Of a stretch of DNA of 26,805 nt, positions 414 through 26,568 are shown piece by piece. The number at the start of each line of letters is the position of its first letter. Positions within the stretch are counted from its first letter, which is position 1. This DNA is from Candidatus Micrarchaeota archaeon (GTDB taxonomy: Archaea; B1Sed10-29; JACOVT01), in assembly GCA_016177165.1 (NCBI GenBank), contig JACOVT010000038.1, positions 1 to 26,805 of the forward strand. Reading direction: 5' to 3'. A program made the position numbers and the translations under genes. The notes beneath the pieces are model-generated. The model made no database searches. It worked only from the letters and a program-made list of their open reading frames with translations, and was not told where the DNA came from.

Positions 414-3164
414 CTAGCGGTAGCGCAGCAGCGCCCCTATCCCGCCGAAGCCTTGGAGGAACTGTTTCCCTTCAGCAGTTTCGGTAGAAATAATCTCTAT
501 GCTCGCGCCCGAAGATTCGGCGAGCTGGGTCAACTCTTCCATCAGCTCGGTGTCAGACTCCACCGACTGTTTTCCGCCGCAGTGGCAGCGGTAATCGCTA
601 TCGATTTCCTTGACCACACTCTCCACGATTTTGCCACAGTTGTTGCACTTTAACAGCAGCTTGCGCATCGCCAGCTCCTCCGAAAGCAATAGAATGTCAG
701 CCTTCCGCAACTCGAGCGCTTTGCGCGTCTCTTCCTCGCCGTAGCAGGCCAGCCCGCTCGTCACGACCTCCTTCAGGAAGCGGTTGACGAGGTCCCGCTC
801 TTTGGTTATTTCCATCTTTTCAATGACCTCATCGGCGTGCTCCACCAATTCCTTGATGCCCGTCTCATCAGTATAGCCGGTGTCGACCGTCCCGCGTATC
901 TTGTTCTTGACTTCGGTCTGGAGGTACTCGCCGTTGATGAAGTCGTACTTTGTCGGGCCCGACCCGCCCGCAATGATGGCCTTGATTTTCTTGTCGGAGA
1001 ACACACCATTGCACGCATCGCCAATTCTCTTGAAGAACTCGTGCACGGCTATCTCGTGAAGCCGCTGGAAACGCATAGCACTATTGTGAAGCATGAATCC
1101 GTTTGCCACGTATGACTCTTGCCTTGGTACGTTCAGGTCGCAGAACAGGATTCCATCGGGCTCGATTTTTTGCTTTTCCACCACATATGATGGTATCAGG
1201 TCTGAATCTAGTACTTGCCTGAGGAACAGGACAATCTCTTTGCATTCGGCTGACTTTTGCGGGTCTGTTTTTTCAAGCACGCGCTGCCAGTTCTCGAACT
1301 CCCTTAAGATGACCCGTTTGAACACCTTGCGCCCCATCGAGCGCTCGTTCCTGAAGAAATTGTTGCCAGTCCGGAACGAGCGGGTGTTGAGGCCCACCTG
1401 CCTAGCCAGCCTTAGCACGTGGCTGCCGCTCATTGGAATCTGGTCTATCCGCGAAGCCTCTTCACCCCTTCGCCTAATTTTACCAAACTTTTCGCGGCTC
1501 GTAAATCCGACAAATTTTATGAAATTGTTCAAGGAATCTTCATCGTTTATCTCAAGGCTGTATTGGAGTGAAGCGCTTTTGACTTTCCAGTTTGGCGGCG
1601 AGATCTTTTCCCTGAAGGAGGTTACGATGCCGAGCCTCAACAGCATCATCCTGAGCTGTTCCATTAGTTTCTTGCTGGTCGTGGTTATGCCTATCCTTCC
1701 AGAGCGTGATTGCACGTAACCTTCCGCGTCGAACAAGCCACGCGCAAACGCTGCAACAATGCTGTTTGGGGACCGCATTGCTGATACTGGGACTTCTGCG
1801 AGGGCGCTTGGCAGCAGGGCCTCGCCGAACTTGTCACGAATGATACCCGCGAGCTCCTTGCAGCAGATAGTTAGCTGGTAGTAGTTTTTACGCGGGTTAT
1901 GCCTTATCACCCCAACCAAGCCTAATGTTAATGCTATCCTTTTGTACTCGTCGAGAACTTCCTTGCGTTCATCATAGAGGCGGATTCTGTGTTCCTCCAC
2001 GCACCCATCGCCGATGGTGTAGCCTAGCAGCTGGGCAAACTCCTCGTCAAGGTATTCAGGCATTTTGAACGTTTTCGCATTCCTGACGTATCTCTCATGG
2101 AACAGCCCCTTGTCAATGCCGTAAATCTCCAACAGCTTGTTGATCTTTTCAAAGCCGATCTTGCCAATGCCGAGCTCGACCTTTGAAAGCGTTGCCTGCG
2201 CAATGCCGAGTTTCTTTGCCACTTCTCGTTGAAGCAGCCGCTTCTCGACGCGCTGGGTAGCCAGGTGTTTGCGTCCTTCTTCCGTTAGTTCGGGGGTCGG
2301 CAGTATTTTCAGGCCAAGAGGTATTCGTTTGCCTTCAAAGTTTATTCTCTTGACCGCCATGATGGTGTCTCCCTTGGCTAACTCGCCGGCGCTTTTCAAC
2401 CCAAGGCCGCGGCCATCCAGGCTAAAGAACCAGTGTTCAGGGGTTGCCACTATCCTGGCTGACGGGTATTTTGTCCTTATGAGGTATGCACTATCTGATT
2501 TTCTCTTGAACACTTTTGCGCATTCTGCCATTGTTGTCTGATAAGTTGACTGACTAACCGAGCAAACGCGGCCAAGGGGGGCTTTTCCAATCTGGCACAC
2601 CGCACCGTCGCCAAGCTGGATGAGGGAATCGCTTGCAATGCACTGACCGCCGACGTGGTGTTTTCCCGGTATGCCTGACGTCAGTTTTCGCAGTATGTCT
2701 ACCTTCTTGCCGTGGAGAGTGGCGACGATGGCTTCCCGCTTGTCCAACACGAACAGCCCGAACGTCTCCTTGTGTTCGATCATCTCCTCAAACGGCTTGG
2801 TGAAAAACGCGGAGTCGCACCGGTAGATCGAGAGCGGCACGGGCTCTGGAGGGACGAGCATGTACTGCTCTATCTTGCCGTTGATGCTGCCGCAATAAAT
2901 CGCAACGCCGTTCTCCGGGGGTTTGGGCACCCCCTTTATCGCTCCCATAATGCTCTCCAGCGCGGACTGCACGTTCTTGCGGGTCTGCTTGGACTTGATG
3001 TTCATCGCCTGCGACGCCTCTTCTCTCAGGCGGTTGGCCACATCGGCAACGTTGGCTCCAGGTGGAATGAGCACGCTGATCAACTCGGTTCCCTCGCCGC
3101 GGATCGACTGCAGGAAGCGCAGTTTCTTCTTGAACTCGAAGAACTCTTTCGAATCGGTCTGCAT
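414..3164 (-). CDS. prf1: Peptide chain release factor aRF1 (archaeal eRF1), intein-containing precursor (916 aa; about 396 aa after splicing)
   Basis: Motifs: GTELIS, A.NIKSKQTRKNV (NIKS), Y.CD..F, GKHHVGGQ|SAMRF (GGQS once the intein is removed), a C-terminal CxxC...CxC insert and GFGGIGALLRY. Start set at ATG 3164 (MQTDSKEFFEFKK) because 3251 would overlap the divergent pyrH. Confidence 0.95.
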   Translation of the reverse strand: MQTDSKEFFEFKKKLRFLQSIRGEGTELISVLIPPGANVADVANRLREEASQAMNIKSKQTRKNVQSALESIMGAIKGVPKPPENGVAIYCGSINGKIEQYMLVPPEPVPLSIYRCDSAFFTKPFEEMIEHKETFGLFVLDKREAIVATLHGKKVDILRKLTSGIPGKHHVGGQCIASDSLIQLGDGAVCQIGKAPLGRVCSVSQSTYQTTMAECAKVFKRKSDSAYLIRTKYPSARIVATPEHWFFSLDGRGLGLKSAGELAKGDTIMAVKRINFEGKRIPLGLKILPTPELTEEGRKHLATQRVEKRLLQREVAKKLGIAQATLSKVELGIGKIGFEKINKLLEIYGIDKGLFHERYVRNAKTFKMPEYLDEEFAQLLGYTIGDGCVEEHRIRLYDERKEVLDEYKRIALTLGLVGVIRHNPRKNYYQLTICCKELAGIIRDKFGEALLPSALAEVPVSAMRSPNSIVAAFARGLFDAEGYVQSRSGRIGITTTSKKLMEQLRMMLLRLGIVTSFREKISPPNWKVKSASLQYSLEINDEDSLNNFIKFVGFTSREKFGKIRRRGEEASRIDQIPMSGSHVLRLARQVGLNTRSFRTGNNFFRNERSMGRKVFKRVILREFENWQRVLEKTDPQKSAECKEIVLFLRQVLDSDLIPSYVVEKQKIEPDGILFCDLNVPRQESYVANGFMLHNSAMRFQRLHEIAVHEFFKRIGDACNGVFSDKKIKAIIAGGSGPTKYDFINGEYLQTEVKNKIRGTVDTGYTDETGIKELVEHADEVIEKMEITKERDLVNRFLKEVVTSGLACYGEEETRKALELRKADILLLSEELAMRKLLLKCNNCGKIVESVVKEIDSDYRCHCGGKQSVESDTELMEELTQLAESSGASIEIISTETAEGKQFLQGFGGIGALLRYR
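1083..2642 (-). mobile_element. Intein (520 aa) with LAGLIDADG homing endonuclease and XRE-type HTH, inserted between Q and S of GGQ|S
   Basis: Starts at Cys1 (TGC 2642-2640, CIASDSLI). Block B ATPEHWFF, LAGLIDADG motifs LLGYTIGDG and FARGLFDAEG, block F/G FCDLNVP...YVANGFMLHN (AAT 1085-1083), and Ser at +1. Confidence 0.95.
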
Positions 3165-3166
3165 GG

Positions 3167-3196
3167 GTTTTTTAAAGCTGGCGGAGGTTAAAAAAC
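3167..3196. promoter_or_regulatory. Back-to-back TATA elements of the divergent prf1/pyrH promoters, forming a 9-bp inverted repeat
   Basis: GTTTTTTAA (3167-3175), 12 nt, then TTAAAAAAC (3188-3196), inside a 40-bp intergenic gap. Each A/T run lies about 24-30 nt upstream of the start codon it points to. Confidence 0.6.
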
Positions 3197-3204
3197 AGGT
3201 ATAC

Positions 3205-3876
3205 ATGCGCTTGGTTCTGTCGCTGGGCGGCTCGATGGTGTTTGACGGCAAGCCGCGCGTCGACTACATACGCAAAGTCGCCTCGCTGGTCACAGGCCTC
3301 AAAGCCACCGTCGGAGTAATAGTGGGTGGCGGGACGGCCGCGCGCGACTACATAGCCGCAGCAAAGGAGTTCGGCGAGGACAACTTCGACCTCGACTGGC
3401 TGGCCACGACCGTCACTTGGGCCAACGCCCGCTTGTGCGCGCCCGCCTTCGGGGGCAGGTTCTTCTACTCCATAGAGGATGCGGGTGAGTGGCTCCTCTC
3501 TGCGCCGGGCCGCACCGCGCTGCTCGGCGGGACCCACCCAAACCAGACCACTGACACAGTGGGCGCAATGCTTTCCGAGAAGATAGGCGCTGACCGCTGG
3601 GTGAACCTTTCCAACGTGGCGGCAGTGTACGACAAGGACCCCAAGAAGTTCCGGGACGCCCGCAAGTTTTCAACAATGACCCATCAGGAACTCGTCCAGC
3701 TTGCCACGGGGCTGGACAAGCGCGGTCCGGGCGAGAACTTCATAATAGACACGCCCGCCGCGCGCGTGCTCGCCCGTTCGAACATCGAGGCCCACTTCGT
3801 CAACGGCAGCGACCTGTCACAAGTCCGGCTGGCACTGCAGGGCAAGCGCCATGATGGAACGGTTGTCAAGGGCTAG
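3205..3876 (+). CDS. pyrH: Uridylate kinase (archaeal type, 223 aa)
   Basis: MRLVLSLGGS, IVGGGTAARDYI, GGTHPNQTTD, NLSNVAAVYDKDPKKF, HDGTVV. Start at ATG 3205; the longer 2923 ORF runs antisense into prf1. Confidence 0.93.
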   Translation: MRLVLSLGGSMVFDGKPRVDYIRKVASLVTGLKATVGVIVGGGTAARDYIAAAKEFGEDNFDLDWLATTVTWANARLCAPAFGGRFFYSIEDAGEWLLSAPGRTALLGGTHPNQTTDTVGAMLSEKIGADRWVNLSNVAAVYDKDPKKFRDARKFSTMTHQELVQLATGLDKRGPGENFIIDTPAARVLARSNIEAHFVNGSDLSQVRLALQGKRHDGTVVKG

Positions 3877-23721: not shown

Positions 23722-25122
23722 CTAGTTTCCGGCAAGGGTGCTGGCGAGCCCAATGTATGATTCAGGGGTCAGGCGCTTCAGGCGGGCCTTGAGCTCTTCG
23801 CTGACCTGAAGGCCATCCACGAATCTTGACAGGTCTTGCATCGTAACACGTTTTCCGCGCGTGACCTCCCTGAGCTTCTCATAAGGCATCTCGACGCCCT
23901 CGCGCCGGAGTATCGTCTGTATGGCTTCTGAAACAACCTCCGGATGGTTCCGCAGAGCTTCGGCCACCTTGGCCTCGTTGACTGACACCTTGCCAAGGCC
24001 CTTTACGGCCGAGTTGTAGGCTATCACGCAATGACCTAGAGCAACGCCAATGTTTCTTAGGACGGTCGCGTCAGATAGGTCCCTTTGCAGCCTTGAGATT
24101 GGCAGCTTGGAGGAGAAGTGGTGTAGCAGCGCGTTTGCTATGCCCAGGTTTCCTTCGCAGTTCTCGAAGTCGATCGGGTTCACCTTGTGCGGCATCGTGG
24201 ACGACCCGACCTCGCCTGCAACAGGCTTCTGGACCAGCCAGTCGTCGCTTATGTATCTCCAGGCGTCCTGCGCTAGCCCGATTACCACCGTGTTTAACCG
24301 GTGGATGTTGTCAAACAGCTCGGCGTACGAGTCATGTGGTTCAATCTGTGTGGTGACCAGGTTTGGGGCGAGCCGCACTCGCCTGCCAGAGTTGAGCGTT
24401 TCCACGAATTGCCTGGTGAAAGCCACCCAGTCGACATCAGGGCACGCGGCCTGGTGCGCGTTATAATTCCCAGTCGCGCCATTCAGCTTTACCAGCAGCT
24501 CGGTTGACTCTAGCTGGTCGACTTGTCTCTTCACGCGCGAGGCGAACACCCTGAACTCCTTTCCAAAAGTGGTGGGCGAGGCCGGCTGGCCGTGGGTCCG
24601 CGCAAGTATGGCGACGTTCCTGTAAAGTAATGCAAGCTCGTCGAGCCTCTCGTAGAGCGCTTTTGCGGCCGGTATCAGTACCTTTTCCAGGCTGTCGCTC
24701 ATCATCATAGAGTGCGCGATGTTTTTCGTGTCGTCGGAAGTAAGCGCGAAATGCACCCATTCGAGCGAGTCGCTGAGCGACGTCCCACCTAGCTTTTCCT
24801 TGATGTAATACTCGATGGCCTTGAGGTCATGGTTGGTCGGCCTCATCCCATCGTGGCCCCCTACCTCAATGTCCTTCACGATGGCAGCGTCCGCGGCAGA
24901 GATGGCGCCCACTGAACGTATGCGTAGCTTCTCCTCTTCGGTGAACCTCCTGAGGCCCGTGCCGCTGGTTTCGGAAAGCGCTATCAGGTAGGCGCATTCG
25001 ACCATCGTGCGGTACTTGATCAGCGCCCTTTCACTGAAAAACTCCGCTAGCGGCTCTACCTGGCCCCGGTAGCGGCCGTCTATCGGGCTTATCGCGTCCA
25101 ACGTCTCCATTACGCTCAGCAT
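23722..25122 (-). CDS. purB: Adenylosuccinate lyase, E. coli-type (about 462-466 aa)
   Basis: AISPIDGRY, TNHDLKAIEY, HFALTSDD, ARTHGQPA, NGATGNYNAH, TTQIEPHD, SSTMPHKVNPIDFEN, QRDLSD.TVLRN. Start at ATG 25122 or 25110; the track's 25341 start overlaps purA. Confidence 0.93.
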   Translation of the reverse strand: MLSVMETLDAISPIDGRYRGQVEPLAEFFSERALIKYRTMVECAYLIALSETSGTGLRRFTEEEKLRIRSVGAISAADAAIVKDIEVGGHDGMRPTNHDLKAIEYYIKEKLGGTSLSDSLEWVHFALTSDDTKNIAHSMMMSDSLEKVLIPAAKALYERLDELALLYRNVAILARTHGQPASPTTFGKEFRVFASRVKRQVDQLESTELLVKLNGATGNYNAHQAACPDVDWVAFTRQFVETLNSGRRVRLAPNLVTTQIEPHDSYAELFDNIHRLNTVVIGLAQDAWRYISDDWLVQKPVAGEVGSSTMPHKVNPIDFENCEGNLGIANALLHHFSSKLPISRLQRDLSDATVLRNIGVALGHCVIAYNSAVKGLGKVSVNEAKVAEALRNHPEVVSEAIQTILRREGVEMPYEKLREVTRGKRVTMQDLSRFVDGLQVSEELKARLKRLTPESYIGLASTLAGN

Positions 25123-25182
25123 TCTAATTAAATGCCCATTGTATAAATAATCAAACCATGTAAGTATTGGCGGGGTGGCTAT

Positions 25183-26568
25183 ATGGGTCTTGTCACGATA
25201 GTGGGTGCCCTTTGGGGAGATGAGGGCAAGGGGAAAATTACTGACGTTGTCAACGAGCAGGCAGACCTGATAGTCAAGACCAACGGCGGGGCCAACGCAG
25301 GCACCACTTTCGTGATTGATGGCAAGAAGCACGTGCTCCACCTGCTGCCTTCAGGAGTGCTGCGCGGGAAACGCTCGCTCCTTGCGCAAGGCATTGTAAT
25401 GAGGCCAGAACAGCTGTGCAAGGAACTTGAGGAGTTTGACTGGAAAGTCAGCATAGGCATCGACCCGAGGCTGCACGTCACTCTCCCTTACCACCTCGCG
25501 CTTGATTATGCTCGGGAAAAGGCAGCCGACCTGAAGGCAAAGGGCGACAACAAGACTGTAGGGGGCGCGATAGGCACGACCCTTTCAGGAATAGGCCCCA
25601 CCTACGAGCAGCAGAAGAGCCGGGCAGGTATCCGCTTCTGCGAGCTCGCTGGCGACGAGGAGAAACTCAAGAAAAGGGTTGAAGAGAACTACAATTACGT
25701 TAAGGGAATAATAGCACAATCAGGCCTGGACGTGGTGATGCCCGACCGGAAACAGGTCGACGGAAAGTACGTCGTGAACGAGGTGCCGCTCACGCCGGAG
25801 TACTGCCAGCAAGTGGCGGTCGAATCCGGCCGCAAGCTTGGCAAGTACCTTTCCGACGTGTCGCTGGAAGTAATCGAGGCGCTAGGCGCTGGCAAGAACG
25901 TGGTGTTCCAAGGCGCCCAAGGAACCATGCTCGACATCGGTTTCGGCAACTACCCAAAAGTCACGAGCTCTGAGACCCGCGCGCCGGCCGCCTACGCGGC
26001 CGTGGGCATACCGCCTGTTCCAATGCGCGTTATCGGCATTGTCAAGGCCTACCCGACAAAAGTCGGCTCCGGTCCTGTCGTGACCTGCCTTGACGGTGGC
26101 AGGTGGCCCGTCGACGAGGCCTGCTCTGATGACATAGCCAAGACAATACGCAAGCGCGCCAACGAGAGAGGCGCGACTACCGGCAGGGCCCGGCGGATCG
26201 GCTGGCCCGACATGGTCGTGCTGAAGTATTCCAGCCAGCTCAACGGCTTCACCAACATAGCCCTGACCCTCTTGGACGTGCTGCACGACATAGACCCGAT
26301 AAAGGTATGCGTGGAATACGAAATAGATGGCAAGAGGACCGACGCCTACCCGTCATGGGATCTGGACGCGCTGGCAAGGGCAAAGCCGGTTTACAAGGAG
26401 CTGCCCGGCTTCGGCGACATTACTGGCGTAAGGGAGTACGGCCAACTGCCTGATGGGGCAAAACAATACATACGGCTGATCGAGCAGGCAACCGGCGCGC
26501 CGGTCTCCATAATATCCGTGGGCCCGGATAGAGAGCAGACCATACTAAGGGATTTCAAACCCTTCTAA
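25183..26568 (+). CDS. purA: Adenylosuccinate synthetase-family protein (461 aa) with atypical active-site residues
   Basis: WGDEGKGK, LHLLPSG, IGTT.SGIGP, GAQG...YP.VTSS, GATTGR.RR.GW, LDVL, SVGPDREQT. The His41-equivalent position is Thr (NAGTT). Confidence 0.88.
   Translation: MGLVTIVGALWGDEGKGKITDVVNEQADLIVKTNGGANAGTTFVIDGKKHVLHLLPSGVLRGKRSLLAQGIVMRPEQLCKELEEFDWKVSIGIDPRLHVTLPYHLALDYAREKAADLKAKGDNKTVGGAIGTTLSGIGPTYEQQKSRAGIRFCELAGDEEKLKKRVEENYNYVKGIIAQSGLDVVMPDRKQVDGKYVVNEVPLTPEYCQQVAVESGRKLGKYLSDVSLEVIEALGAGKNVVFQGAQGTMLDIGFGNYPKVTSSETRAPAAYAAVGIPPVPMRVIGIVKAYPTKVGSGPVVTCLDGGRWPVDEACSDDIAKTIRKRANERGATTGRARRIGWPDMVVLKYSSQLNGFTNIALTLLDVLHDIDPIKVCVEYEIDGKRTDAYPSWDLDALARAKPVYKELPGFGDITGVREYGQLPDGAKQYIRLIEQATGAPVSIISVGPDREQTILRDFKPF

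Follow-up and report, generated by a model that had tools for sequence, protein, structure and literature searches.

Adenylosuccinate synthetase (AdSS, the product of purA) contains a histidine, His41 in Escherichia coli PurA, that is regarded as its catalytic acid and as an essential catalytic residue. To our knowledge, this residue hardly ever varies across organisms ranging from bacteria to humans. The equivalents of Lys331, Asp333, and Ser414–Gly416 contact GDP, while Asp13 and the carbonyl of Gly40 hold the metal (PMC11276676), and Arg303 contacts both the ribose 2′-OH of inosine monophosphate (IMP) and the aspartate substrate (PMC8342488). In the Helicobacter pylori enzyme, the equivalent of Arg143 completes the neighboring subunit's active site (PMC11276676, PMC11571797). 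In phage PurZ, Asp13 is replaced by Ser, dGMP is bound, the equivalent of Arg303 has moved away from C2′, and the gene is located in a phage Z-cluster (PMC12884076, PMC8342488). Here, we describe a purA-like gene in a 26,805-nucleotide stretch of archaeal DNA (contig JACOVT010000038.1, hereafter the window), the product of which, P0001, carries Thr in place of His41. Maintained selection, taken together with partner changes throughout the clade to which P0001 belongs, leads us to conclude that the gene probably encodes a functional enzyme whose catalytic center has been rebuilt, and that it is probably neither defective nor part of a new pathway. Residue numbers are those of E. coli PurA, the sequence of which was taken from NC_000913.3 and aligned to P0001.

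A PurA homologue with Thr at position 41

The gene and the stretches of it that bear on catalysis are as follows, with the basis of each assignment in parentheses.

25183–26568, + strand: purA-like open reading frame encoding P0001, a long-type adenylosuccinate synthetase homologue without His41 (translation, profiles, structure model)
25210–25236, + strand: LWGDEGKGK, with Q10L ahead of an intact P-loop that contains Asp13 and Lys16 (E. coli alignment)
25276–25278, + strand: Lys32, where every His-type PurA examined has Arg32 (column scan of PurAs)
25285–25308, + strand: GGANAGTT, residues 35–42, with Thr41 at the position of the catalytic His41 and with Asn38 and Gly40 kept (alignment)
25573–25590, + strand: GTTLSG, with the IMP-binding Thr128 and Thr129 kept and with G130L and R131S (alignment)
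25603–25623, + strand: YEQQKSR, with D139Q, K140Q, and V141K and with Arg143 kept, in the predicted dimer interface (alignment, dimer model)
25909–25923, + strand: QGAQG, with E221Q and with Gln224 kept (alignment)
25930–25983, + strand: LDIGFGNYPKVTSSETRA, with D231G, H232F, T234N, Y237K, N242E, and T244R and with Thr239 kept, mostly in the predicted dimer interface (alignment, dimer model)
26056–26118, + strand: TKVGSGPVVT (R272K) followed by the 11-residue insert CLDGGRWPVDE (both common to the whole DPANN PurA clade, including its His41 forms)
26170–26196, + strand: GATTGRARR, the intact aspartate and IMP-ribose loop with Thr300, Thr301, Arg303, and Arg305 (alignment)
26266–26277, + strand: TLLD, with K331L (Leu331 codon at 26269–26271) and with the guanine-specificity residue Asp333 kept
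26515–26526, + strand: SVGP, the intact guanine-binding motif (alignment)

P0001 is the 461-residue uninterrupted translation of its open reading frame and matches PF00709 end to end (421 bits, profile positions 2–416 of 416). It also scores marginally above the cut-off of the PurA equivalog model NF002223 (408.5 bits against 402). The nearest solved structures are those of long-type bacterial PurAs, namely Bacillus anthracis 4m0g (E = 1e-86) and E. coli 1ade (E = 1e-77). Two other assignments were considered and rejected. The short archaeal PurA of the Pyrococcus horikoshii type is only ∼340 residues long, and the match of P0001 to 2d7u/5k7x is partial (157 bits, in two stretches). Membership in PurZ is contradicted by the score against NF038379 (71 bits, where the cut-off is 300), by the presence of Asp13, and by a template-modeling (TM) score of ∼0.55 when the P0001 model is compared with PurZ structures by Foldseek (6fm1, 7odx, 7vf6). 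Retention of Asp13, which the initial annotation of this locus had set against the PurZ precedent, is evident in the alignment.

Codon 41 is ACC (25303–25305), which differs from CAC at two bases and lies 28 residues beyond Asp13. Around it, the residues kept in P0001 are Asp13, Lys16, Asn38, Gly40, Thr128/129, Arg143, Arg147, Gln224, Thr239, Val273, Thr300/301, Arg303, Arg305, Asp333, and Ser414-x-Gly-Pro. The IMP-site set (N38, T128/T129, R143 in trans, Q224, T239, V273, and R303) is therefore complete. The aspartate loop GATTGRxRR is also complete, but its supporting residue R131 is Ser; the guanine site retains D333 and SVGP with Leu at position 331. Among Arg303 and the GDP and metal contacts described in PMC11276676, only Lys331 is altered. 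Its replacement by Leu is confined to this genome: the other members of the Thr41 core (the group of closely related Thr41 proteins described below) have Arg at this position, and the Asn/Thr intermediate lineages have Lys. We note that TLLD also occurs in P0040, an ordinary His41 PurA. Gln10, which is 95% conserved in other PurAs, is Leu or Ile in the Thr41 core.

The initial annotation, made from the sequence of the window, had listed a set of substitutions as coordinated changes in the active site, and alignment to the E. coli protein confirms all of them (the NAGTT-type motif, LWGD, YEQQKSR, QGAQG, LDIGFG, TKVG, and TLLD, with GATTGRARR intact). Their placement in the active site is another matter: D139Q, K140Q, and D231G fall in the predicted dimer interface, R272K and H232F are clade-wide, and half of the listed changes are features of the wider DPANN clade or of the dimer interface. 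Sister PurAs that retain His41 also have R272K, H232F, and the 11-residue insert, so these features are unlinked to the loss of His41. Three changes were missing from the list: R32K, G130L, and R131S.

Arg32, His41, and Glu221 change together

Every E. coli position was scanned across 261 PurAs, with P0266 set aside. Just three positions show 100% conservation among the 246 PurAs outside the non-His group and yet differ in all of its members, the replacements being Arg32 to Lys, His41 to Thr or Asn, and Glu221 to Gln. The pattern goes beyond what would be expected by chance. All 22 His-less members have Lys32 and Gln221, while the ∼260 His-type PurAs examined have Arg32, His41, and Glu221, and no intermediate combination was seen among the PurAs examined. 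When the trio was set as a prediction and checked on later sequences, Lys32 and Gln221 were present in 5/5 new non-His proteins and Arg32 and Glu221 in 15/15 new His41 proteins; the fragment P0148 has Gln221. The sequences are related by descent, and the 22 cases consequently represent one event that has been faithfully maintained rather than 22 independent events. The proposal that His41 was lost along with coordinated changes is thus upheld by R32K and E221Q in 22 of 22 members, which implies a changed catalytic arrangement.

Four members of the clade (P0016, P0272, P0273, and P0281) have Asn at position 41, and in part of the clade the trio is accompanied by replacement of Gln10 with Leu or Ile. 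From these patterns, we infer that residues 10, 32, 41, and 221 may constitute one network at the phosphoryl-transfer site, with the trio pointing to a three-residue network around that site. Such an Arg32/His41/Glu221 network is not flagged in the literature accessible to us.

The homologue that was set aside, P0266, is a long-branch sequence outside the DPANN clade that reads GGNNSGRT (Arg41), with Ala32 and with Glu221 kept, and thus breaks with the His41 rule in another way.

His41 was apparently lost once, within a DPANN clade

A homologue search over 5.8 billion proteins returned 14 proteins that are 61–100% identical to P0001, all of which read NAGT(T/S); below these came DPANN archaeal PurAs at 46–52% identity, then ordinary bacterial PurAs at no more than 44%. 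Among 1.84 billion proteins clustered at 50% identity, a single representative stands for the whole Thr41 core, and the next match, P0122, is also a Thr41 protein. A search seeded with P0122 gave five further full-length non-His sequences. Other NAGTT homologues, for which the initial annotation had suggested a search, therefore exist, and they fall within one clade. In an IQ-TREE analysis of 50 sequences (LG+C20), the DPANN PurA clade has support of 100/98 and is also marked by the 11-residue insert and by R272K, H232F, T234N, and Y237K. Nested in it is the non-His clade (99/96), and nested in that is the Thr41 core (100/100), on a stem of 0.43. A second tree again gives a monophyletic non-His clade (SH-aLRT 98), the sister of which is an Undinarchaeales-type His41 pair, and has Asn41 and Thr41 interleaved in the basal group. 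Codon 41 of P0016 is AAC, an intermediate that is one base change away from CAC (His) and one from ACC (Thr). The monophyly, the interleaving, and the AAC intermediate together indicate a single loss of His41 inside the DPANN-archaeal PurA clade; as judged from these sequences, there have been at least two later switches between Asn and Thr at this position.

The source genome (G000) is an 847-kb DPANN-type assembly from groundwater that is 79% complete. Searches at the level of its order, class, and phylum found no Thr41 PurA in 30 other genomes of the phylum, and no PurA at all was seen in 17 other genomes of the order. PurAs that do occur in the phylum (L004–L010, from G018–G026, of the same class) are canonical at Arg32 and His41 and only 41–50% identical to P0001. 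The closest relatives of the G000 protein, at 75% identity, come from metagenome-assembled genomes labeled Nanoarchaeota by their sources, and two other genomes with a Thr41 PurA, G041 and G042, are outside the 31 genomes of this phylum. The distant, canonical PurAs of its own phylum and the 75% relatives elsewhere suggest horizontal acquisition, with transfer of the His-less purA, and perhaps also of purB, among DPANN lineages. A scan of a genome collection with P0001 returned only ordinary bacterial PurAs, dominated by the universal WGDEGKGK pattern, and was uninformative on the clade.

The His-less sequence is real and under selection

Groundwater metagenome contigs from four runs of one study were compared with the locus, and two runs (X1 and X2) cover codon 41. 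The contigs of neither run have a variant at this codon; the sole differences at the locus are at 24972, 25018, and 26523–26534. Thr41 is retained in 15 homologues (61–100% identical). Across six coding sequences of the Thr41 group, it is encoded by ACC, ACG, ACA, and ACT, and gene GC ranges from 0.33 to 0.58, with the motifs nonetheless fixed. The ratio of nonsynonymous to synonymous substitution rates (dN/dS) within the Thr41 core is 0.13–0.16, a range that comes from three pairs only, as dS is saturated in most pairs. Mean column identity is 81%, and the His-less state is shared by 22 homologues from many assemblies. The initial annotation had named a read-level error at 25303 and an elevated dN/dS indicative of simple decay as findings that would speak against it, and neither is seen. 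An error of sequencing or assembly at codon 41 can be eliminated because independent contigs of two runs agree and 22 homologues share the state; a decaying pseudogene is eliminated by the open frame and purifying selection.

Predicted structure and dimer interface

An AlphaFold2 model of P0001, built on 77 homologues, has a mean predicted local distance difference test (pLDDT) score of 93.3 and a predicted TM score of 0.91. Foldseek aligns it to ligated AdSS structures (4m9d, 1cg1, and 1cg3) with TM scores of 0.86–0.94 and root-mean-square deviations of 1.8–2.0 Å, so the structural model bears out the AdSS fold. Homodimer prediction gives an ipSAE of 0.88, compared with 0.00 for the best of three controls; as AdSS dimers have already been solved, this pass may reflect likeness to known structures. 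Of 30 proteins whose structures were solved as pairs of one chain, 20 attain this ipSAE mark, compared with 1 of 23 that were solved as single chains. At least 97% of contacts recur between the dimer runs, with a partner pLDDT of at least 87.

The predicted interface includes residues 141–148, 252–254, several within 257–264 (257, 258, 260, 262, and 264), and 266–269 in P0001 numbering, with contacts such as 145–145′ and 147–258′. Arg147 of P0001, which corresponds to E. coli Arg143, touches the partner's residue 258, a contact in keeping with a residue that completes the neighboring active site. The model therefore places D139Q, K140Q, V141K, D231G, N242E, and T244R in the subunit interface, and D139Q, K140Q, and D231G outside the catalytic center.

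Purine metabolism and gene neighborhood

Upstream of purA, on the opposite strand, lies purB.

23722–25110, − strand: purB, encoding a 462-residue canonical E. coli-type adenylosuccinate lyase, divergent from purA (609 bits to NF006764, the cut-off of which is 446; start codon checked)
25111–25182, no strand: divergent purB–purA intergenic region, 72 bp, AT-rich (sequence reading)

PurB of the window aligns to 2pts with 454 bits and has both the THGQPA and GSSTMPHKVNP motifs intact, so that its active site is canonical. Translation, profile matches, and these motifs agree with the earlier description of an uninterrupted purA frame adjoining an intact purB. The same divergent arrangement is found on the P0004 contigs.

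In G000, G041, and G042, PurA is the only match to PF00709, and this search revealed no second PurA. None of the three genomes has a match to PurC, AIRS_C, GMP synthase, or a convincing IMPDH; the lone weak IMPDH match in G000 (27.7 bits, spanning 99 profile positions, in a 361-residue open reading frame) was not counted as GuaB. A 163-residue purine phosphoribosyltransferase adjoins phosphoribosyl pyrophosphate (PRPP) synthase in G000 (G000:C15:1266–2649, locus L120). Its best matches are to XPRT and HGPRT models, all under their cut-offs, and it is likely the entry point of purine salvage. Purine metabolism in these genomes with Thr41 PurA appears to be limited to salvage, and there the PurA–PurB pair fits the conversion of IMP to AMP. 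With no PurC found, PurA would in such a setting be the only source of substrate for PurB. The suggestion that this pair might make a nonstandard purine nucleotide finds no support, as PurB is canonical and the salvage-only genomes fit IMP to AMP. With the substrate determinants kept, no back-up PurA, and an ordinary PurB, the simplest reading of the pathway is hypoxanthine to IMP to adenylosuccinate to AMP.

A FAD-dependent protein of ∼450 residues (PF21688, FAD-depend_C, with a weak match to the aminoacetone-oxidase family) is divergent from purA in six of nine DPANN-clade contexts:

L033:4509–5891, − strand: PF21688 neighbor
L032:4510–5877, − strand: PF21688 neighbor
L034:4575–5900, − strand: PF21688 neighbor
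L036:4551–5903, − strand: PF21688 neighbor
L131:4498–5874, − strand: PF21688 neighbor
L133:4560–5897, − strand: PF21688 neighbor

This gene adjoins both His41 and non-His purA and is therefore not tied to the loss of His41; it was not found in G000. At another locus (L132:4486–5928, + strand), a Thr41 purA directly follows genes for an RdgB/HAM1 noncanonical purine NTP pyrophosphatase and a phosphoesterase on the same strand. RdgB/HAM1 makes IMP and XMP from ITP and XTP, and the array hints at an IMP-supplying cluster. Directly 3′ of one Thr41 purA is an archaeal-type phosphoenolpyruvate (PEP) carboxylase (PF14010; L131:7395–8834, + strand), and directly 3′ of another is a PPDK_N/PEP-utilizing protein (L032:7429–8448, + strand); these neighbors may link purA to the supply of oxaloacetate and aspartate.

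The wider setting in the window is archaeal, with an intein-containing aRF1, diphthamide synthase, and TrmB regulators. The aRF1 gene (414–3251, − strand) is split by an intein that carries a LAGLIDADG homing endonuclease and a helix-turn-helix domain. PurZ context genes (datZ, mazZ, or a phage or Z-cluster setting) were not seen, the neighbors being archaeal chromosomal genes and purB.

Proposed function and alternatives

The reading that we favor, with moderate confidence, is that P0001 serves as the functional adenylosuccinate synthetase in a DPANN archaeon that obtains purines only by salvage, and that it makes adenylosuccinate from salvaged IMP using a phosphoryl-transfer site that does not depend on His. 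As judged from sequence comparison, the reaction would be kept (IMP + L-Asp + GTP giving adenylosuccinate + GDP + Pi) and would proceed through 6-phosphoryl-IMP with Asp13 as the base. The sole task left to residue 41 would be that of hydrogen-bond donor to the transferred phosphoryl group, a role that fits the interchange of Asn and Thr at this position. Loss of the (protonated) imidazole would be offset by removal of the Glu221 carboxylate and by retuning of residue 32. With Glu221 neutralized, a negative charge no longer balanced by the imidazolium would be gone, and Lys32 might be freed to help; Lys16, Mg2+, and possibly Lys32 would then stabilize the transition state. Further changes, which came later and in the Thr41 core, would have remodeled the interface (D139Q, K140Q, V141K/R, D231x, and N242E), the support of the aspartate loop (R131S), and the guanine lid (K331R/L). 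The purine phosphoribosyltransferase and PRPP synthase would supply IMP from hypoxanthine, and PurB would then release AMP.

Several points weigh against this proposal. Kang et al. (1997, J Biol Chem 272:11881) reportedly found E. coli PurA H41N to be essentially inactive, and turnover may therefore be very slow in an enzyme with Thr or Asn at position 41. Some shift in specificity is possible because R131S affects the aspartate-loop site and K331R/L the guanine site. P0001 scores 385 against the PurA equivalog model TIGR00184, under the cut-off of 395.55, and the long stem branch (0.43–0.49) is one that neofunctionalization would also leave. The contact among residues 10, 32, 41, and 221 is drawn solely from covariation. 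PurB was not found in G042, and the absences in the three genomes are provisional, with G000 79% complete and G041 and G042 of unknown completeness.

Alternatively, P0001 could be a neofunctionalized ligase that uses another phosphoryl donor, 6-oxopurine nucleotide, or amino acid, with PurB releasing a nonstandard nucleotide. Such a change would account for the loss of an otherwise invariant His41 together with R32K and E221Q, for the long stem branch, for R131S in the support of the aspartate loop and K331R/L in the guanine lid, and for the marginal or failing equivalog scores, and PurZ is a precedent for a PurA fold that is able to change its substrate (PMC12884076). Nevertheless, we consider it unlikely: the residues that directly determine IMP (R303 and V273, for the 2′-OH, among them), aspartate (T300, T301, R303, and R305), and guanine (D333 and SVGP) are all kept, Lys331 persists in the Asn/Thr intermediates so that His loss is not tied to the donor site, the PurB active-site motifs are canonical, no phage or Z-cluster-like context was seen, and, with no ordinary second PurA in the three genomes, the step from IMP to AMP would have no enzyme. 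The initial view of a PurA variant altered in mechanism, donor, or substrate is accordingly supported as regards a real, selected variant with a changed catalytic arrangement and not supported as regards a changed substrate or donor, as the determinants are kept. A broader formulation is a mechanistically distinct class of PurA-fold ligase, in which the acid or electrostatic role of His41 has moved (for example, to Lys32) or specificity has shifted so that the PurB route yields a product other than AMP; we regard it as doubtful.

Less probable still is a crippled or dead PurA that is kept for nucleotide binding, regulation, or partnering with PurB, or else a very slow, uncompensated enzyme that slow-growing symbionts tolerate. 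The reported inactivity of E. coli H41N, the natural Asn41 forms within the clade, and the reliance of DPANN archaea on hosts for many metabolites would fit such a protein. Strong conservation of Asp13, Lys16, Asn38, Gln224, and the Arg303/305 loop across 22 sequences would not, nor would a dN/dS of ∼0.14 or the co-retention of an intact PurB that, with no PurC found, has no other source of substrate; moreover, the repeated, specific pairing of Lys32 with Gln221 looks like compensation and not drift. A sequencing or assembly mistake at codon 41, or decay into a pseudogene, has nothing in its favor; the two-run contig agreement, the 22 homologues with the same state, the open frame, and purifying selection all stand against it, leaving it a negligible chance.

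If P0001 is indeed a working synthetase with a His-independent site, a natural, selected clade that lacks His41 and always has Arg32 and Glu221 changed amounts to a ready-made experiment. It predicts that the triple swap, and not H41N alone, makes a His-less enzyme viable. We found no published description of a His41-less PurA clade, the primary texts on the roles of His41, Glu221, and Arg32 being inaccessible to us. Public records name these His-less proteins plain adenylosuccinate synthase, and the name matters since metabolic reconstructions of DPANN archaea rest on that label.

Comparison with known systems

Among described proteins, P0001 most resembles the long-type PurAs (EC 6.3.4.4; E. 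coli 1ADE and 1CG0/1CG1; B. anthracis 4M9D). It shares with them a full PF00709 domain, 37–38% identity, the same fold, the P-loop with Asp13 and Lys16, the determinants for IMP, aspartate, and guanine, a predicted homodimer in which Arg143 extends into the other subunit, and PurB as the next enzyme. It differs from them in Lys32/Thr41/Gln221, Q10L, R131S, K331L, a remodeled interface, and an 11-residue insert after Thr280. The His41-bearing DPANN sisters (P0017–P0025 and P0275–P0291, some named Nanoarchaeota, Woesearchaeota, or Undinarchaeales) are 46–51% identical to P0001. They have the same insert, R272K, H232F, T234N, and Y237K, and often the same divergent PF21688 neighbor; unlike P0001, they keep Arg32, His41, Glu221, Gln10, Asp139, and Lys331.

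With phage PurZ/PurZ0 (succino-amino-deoxyadenylate synthase; 6FM1, 7ODX, and 7VF6), P0001 has in common a PurA fold in which a canonical catalytic residue is naturally replaced, whereas P0001 keeps Asp13 and Arg303 and is encoded in an archaeal chromosomal context. The E. coli H41N laboratory mutant attributed to Kang et al. (1997) has natural counterparts in the Asn41 members of the clade; unlike that mutant, the natural His-less forms all add R32K and E221Q.

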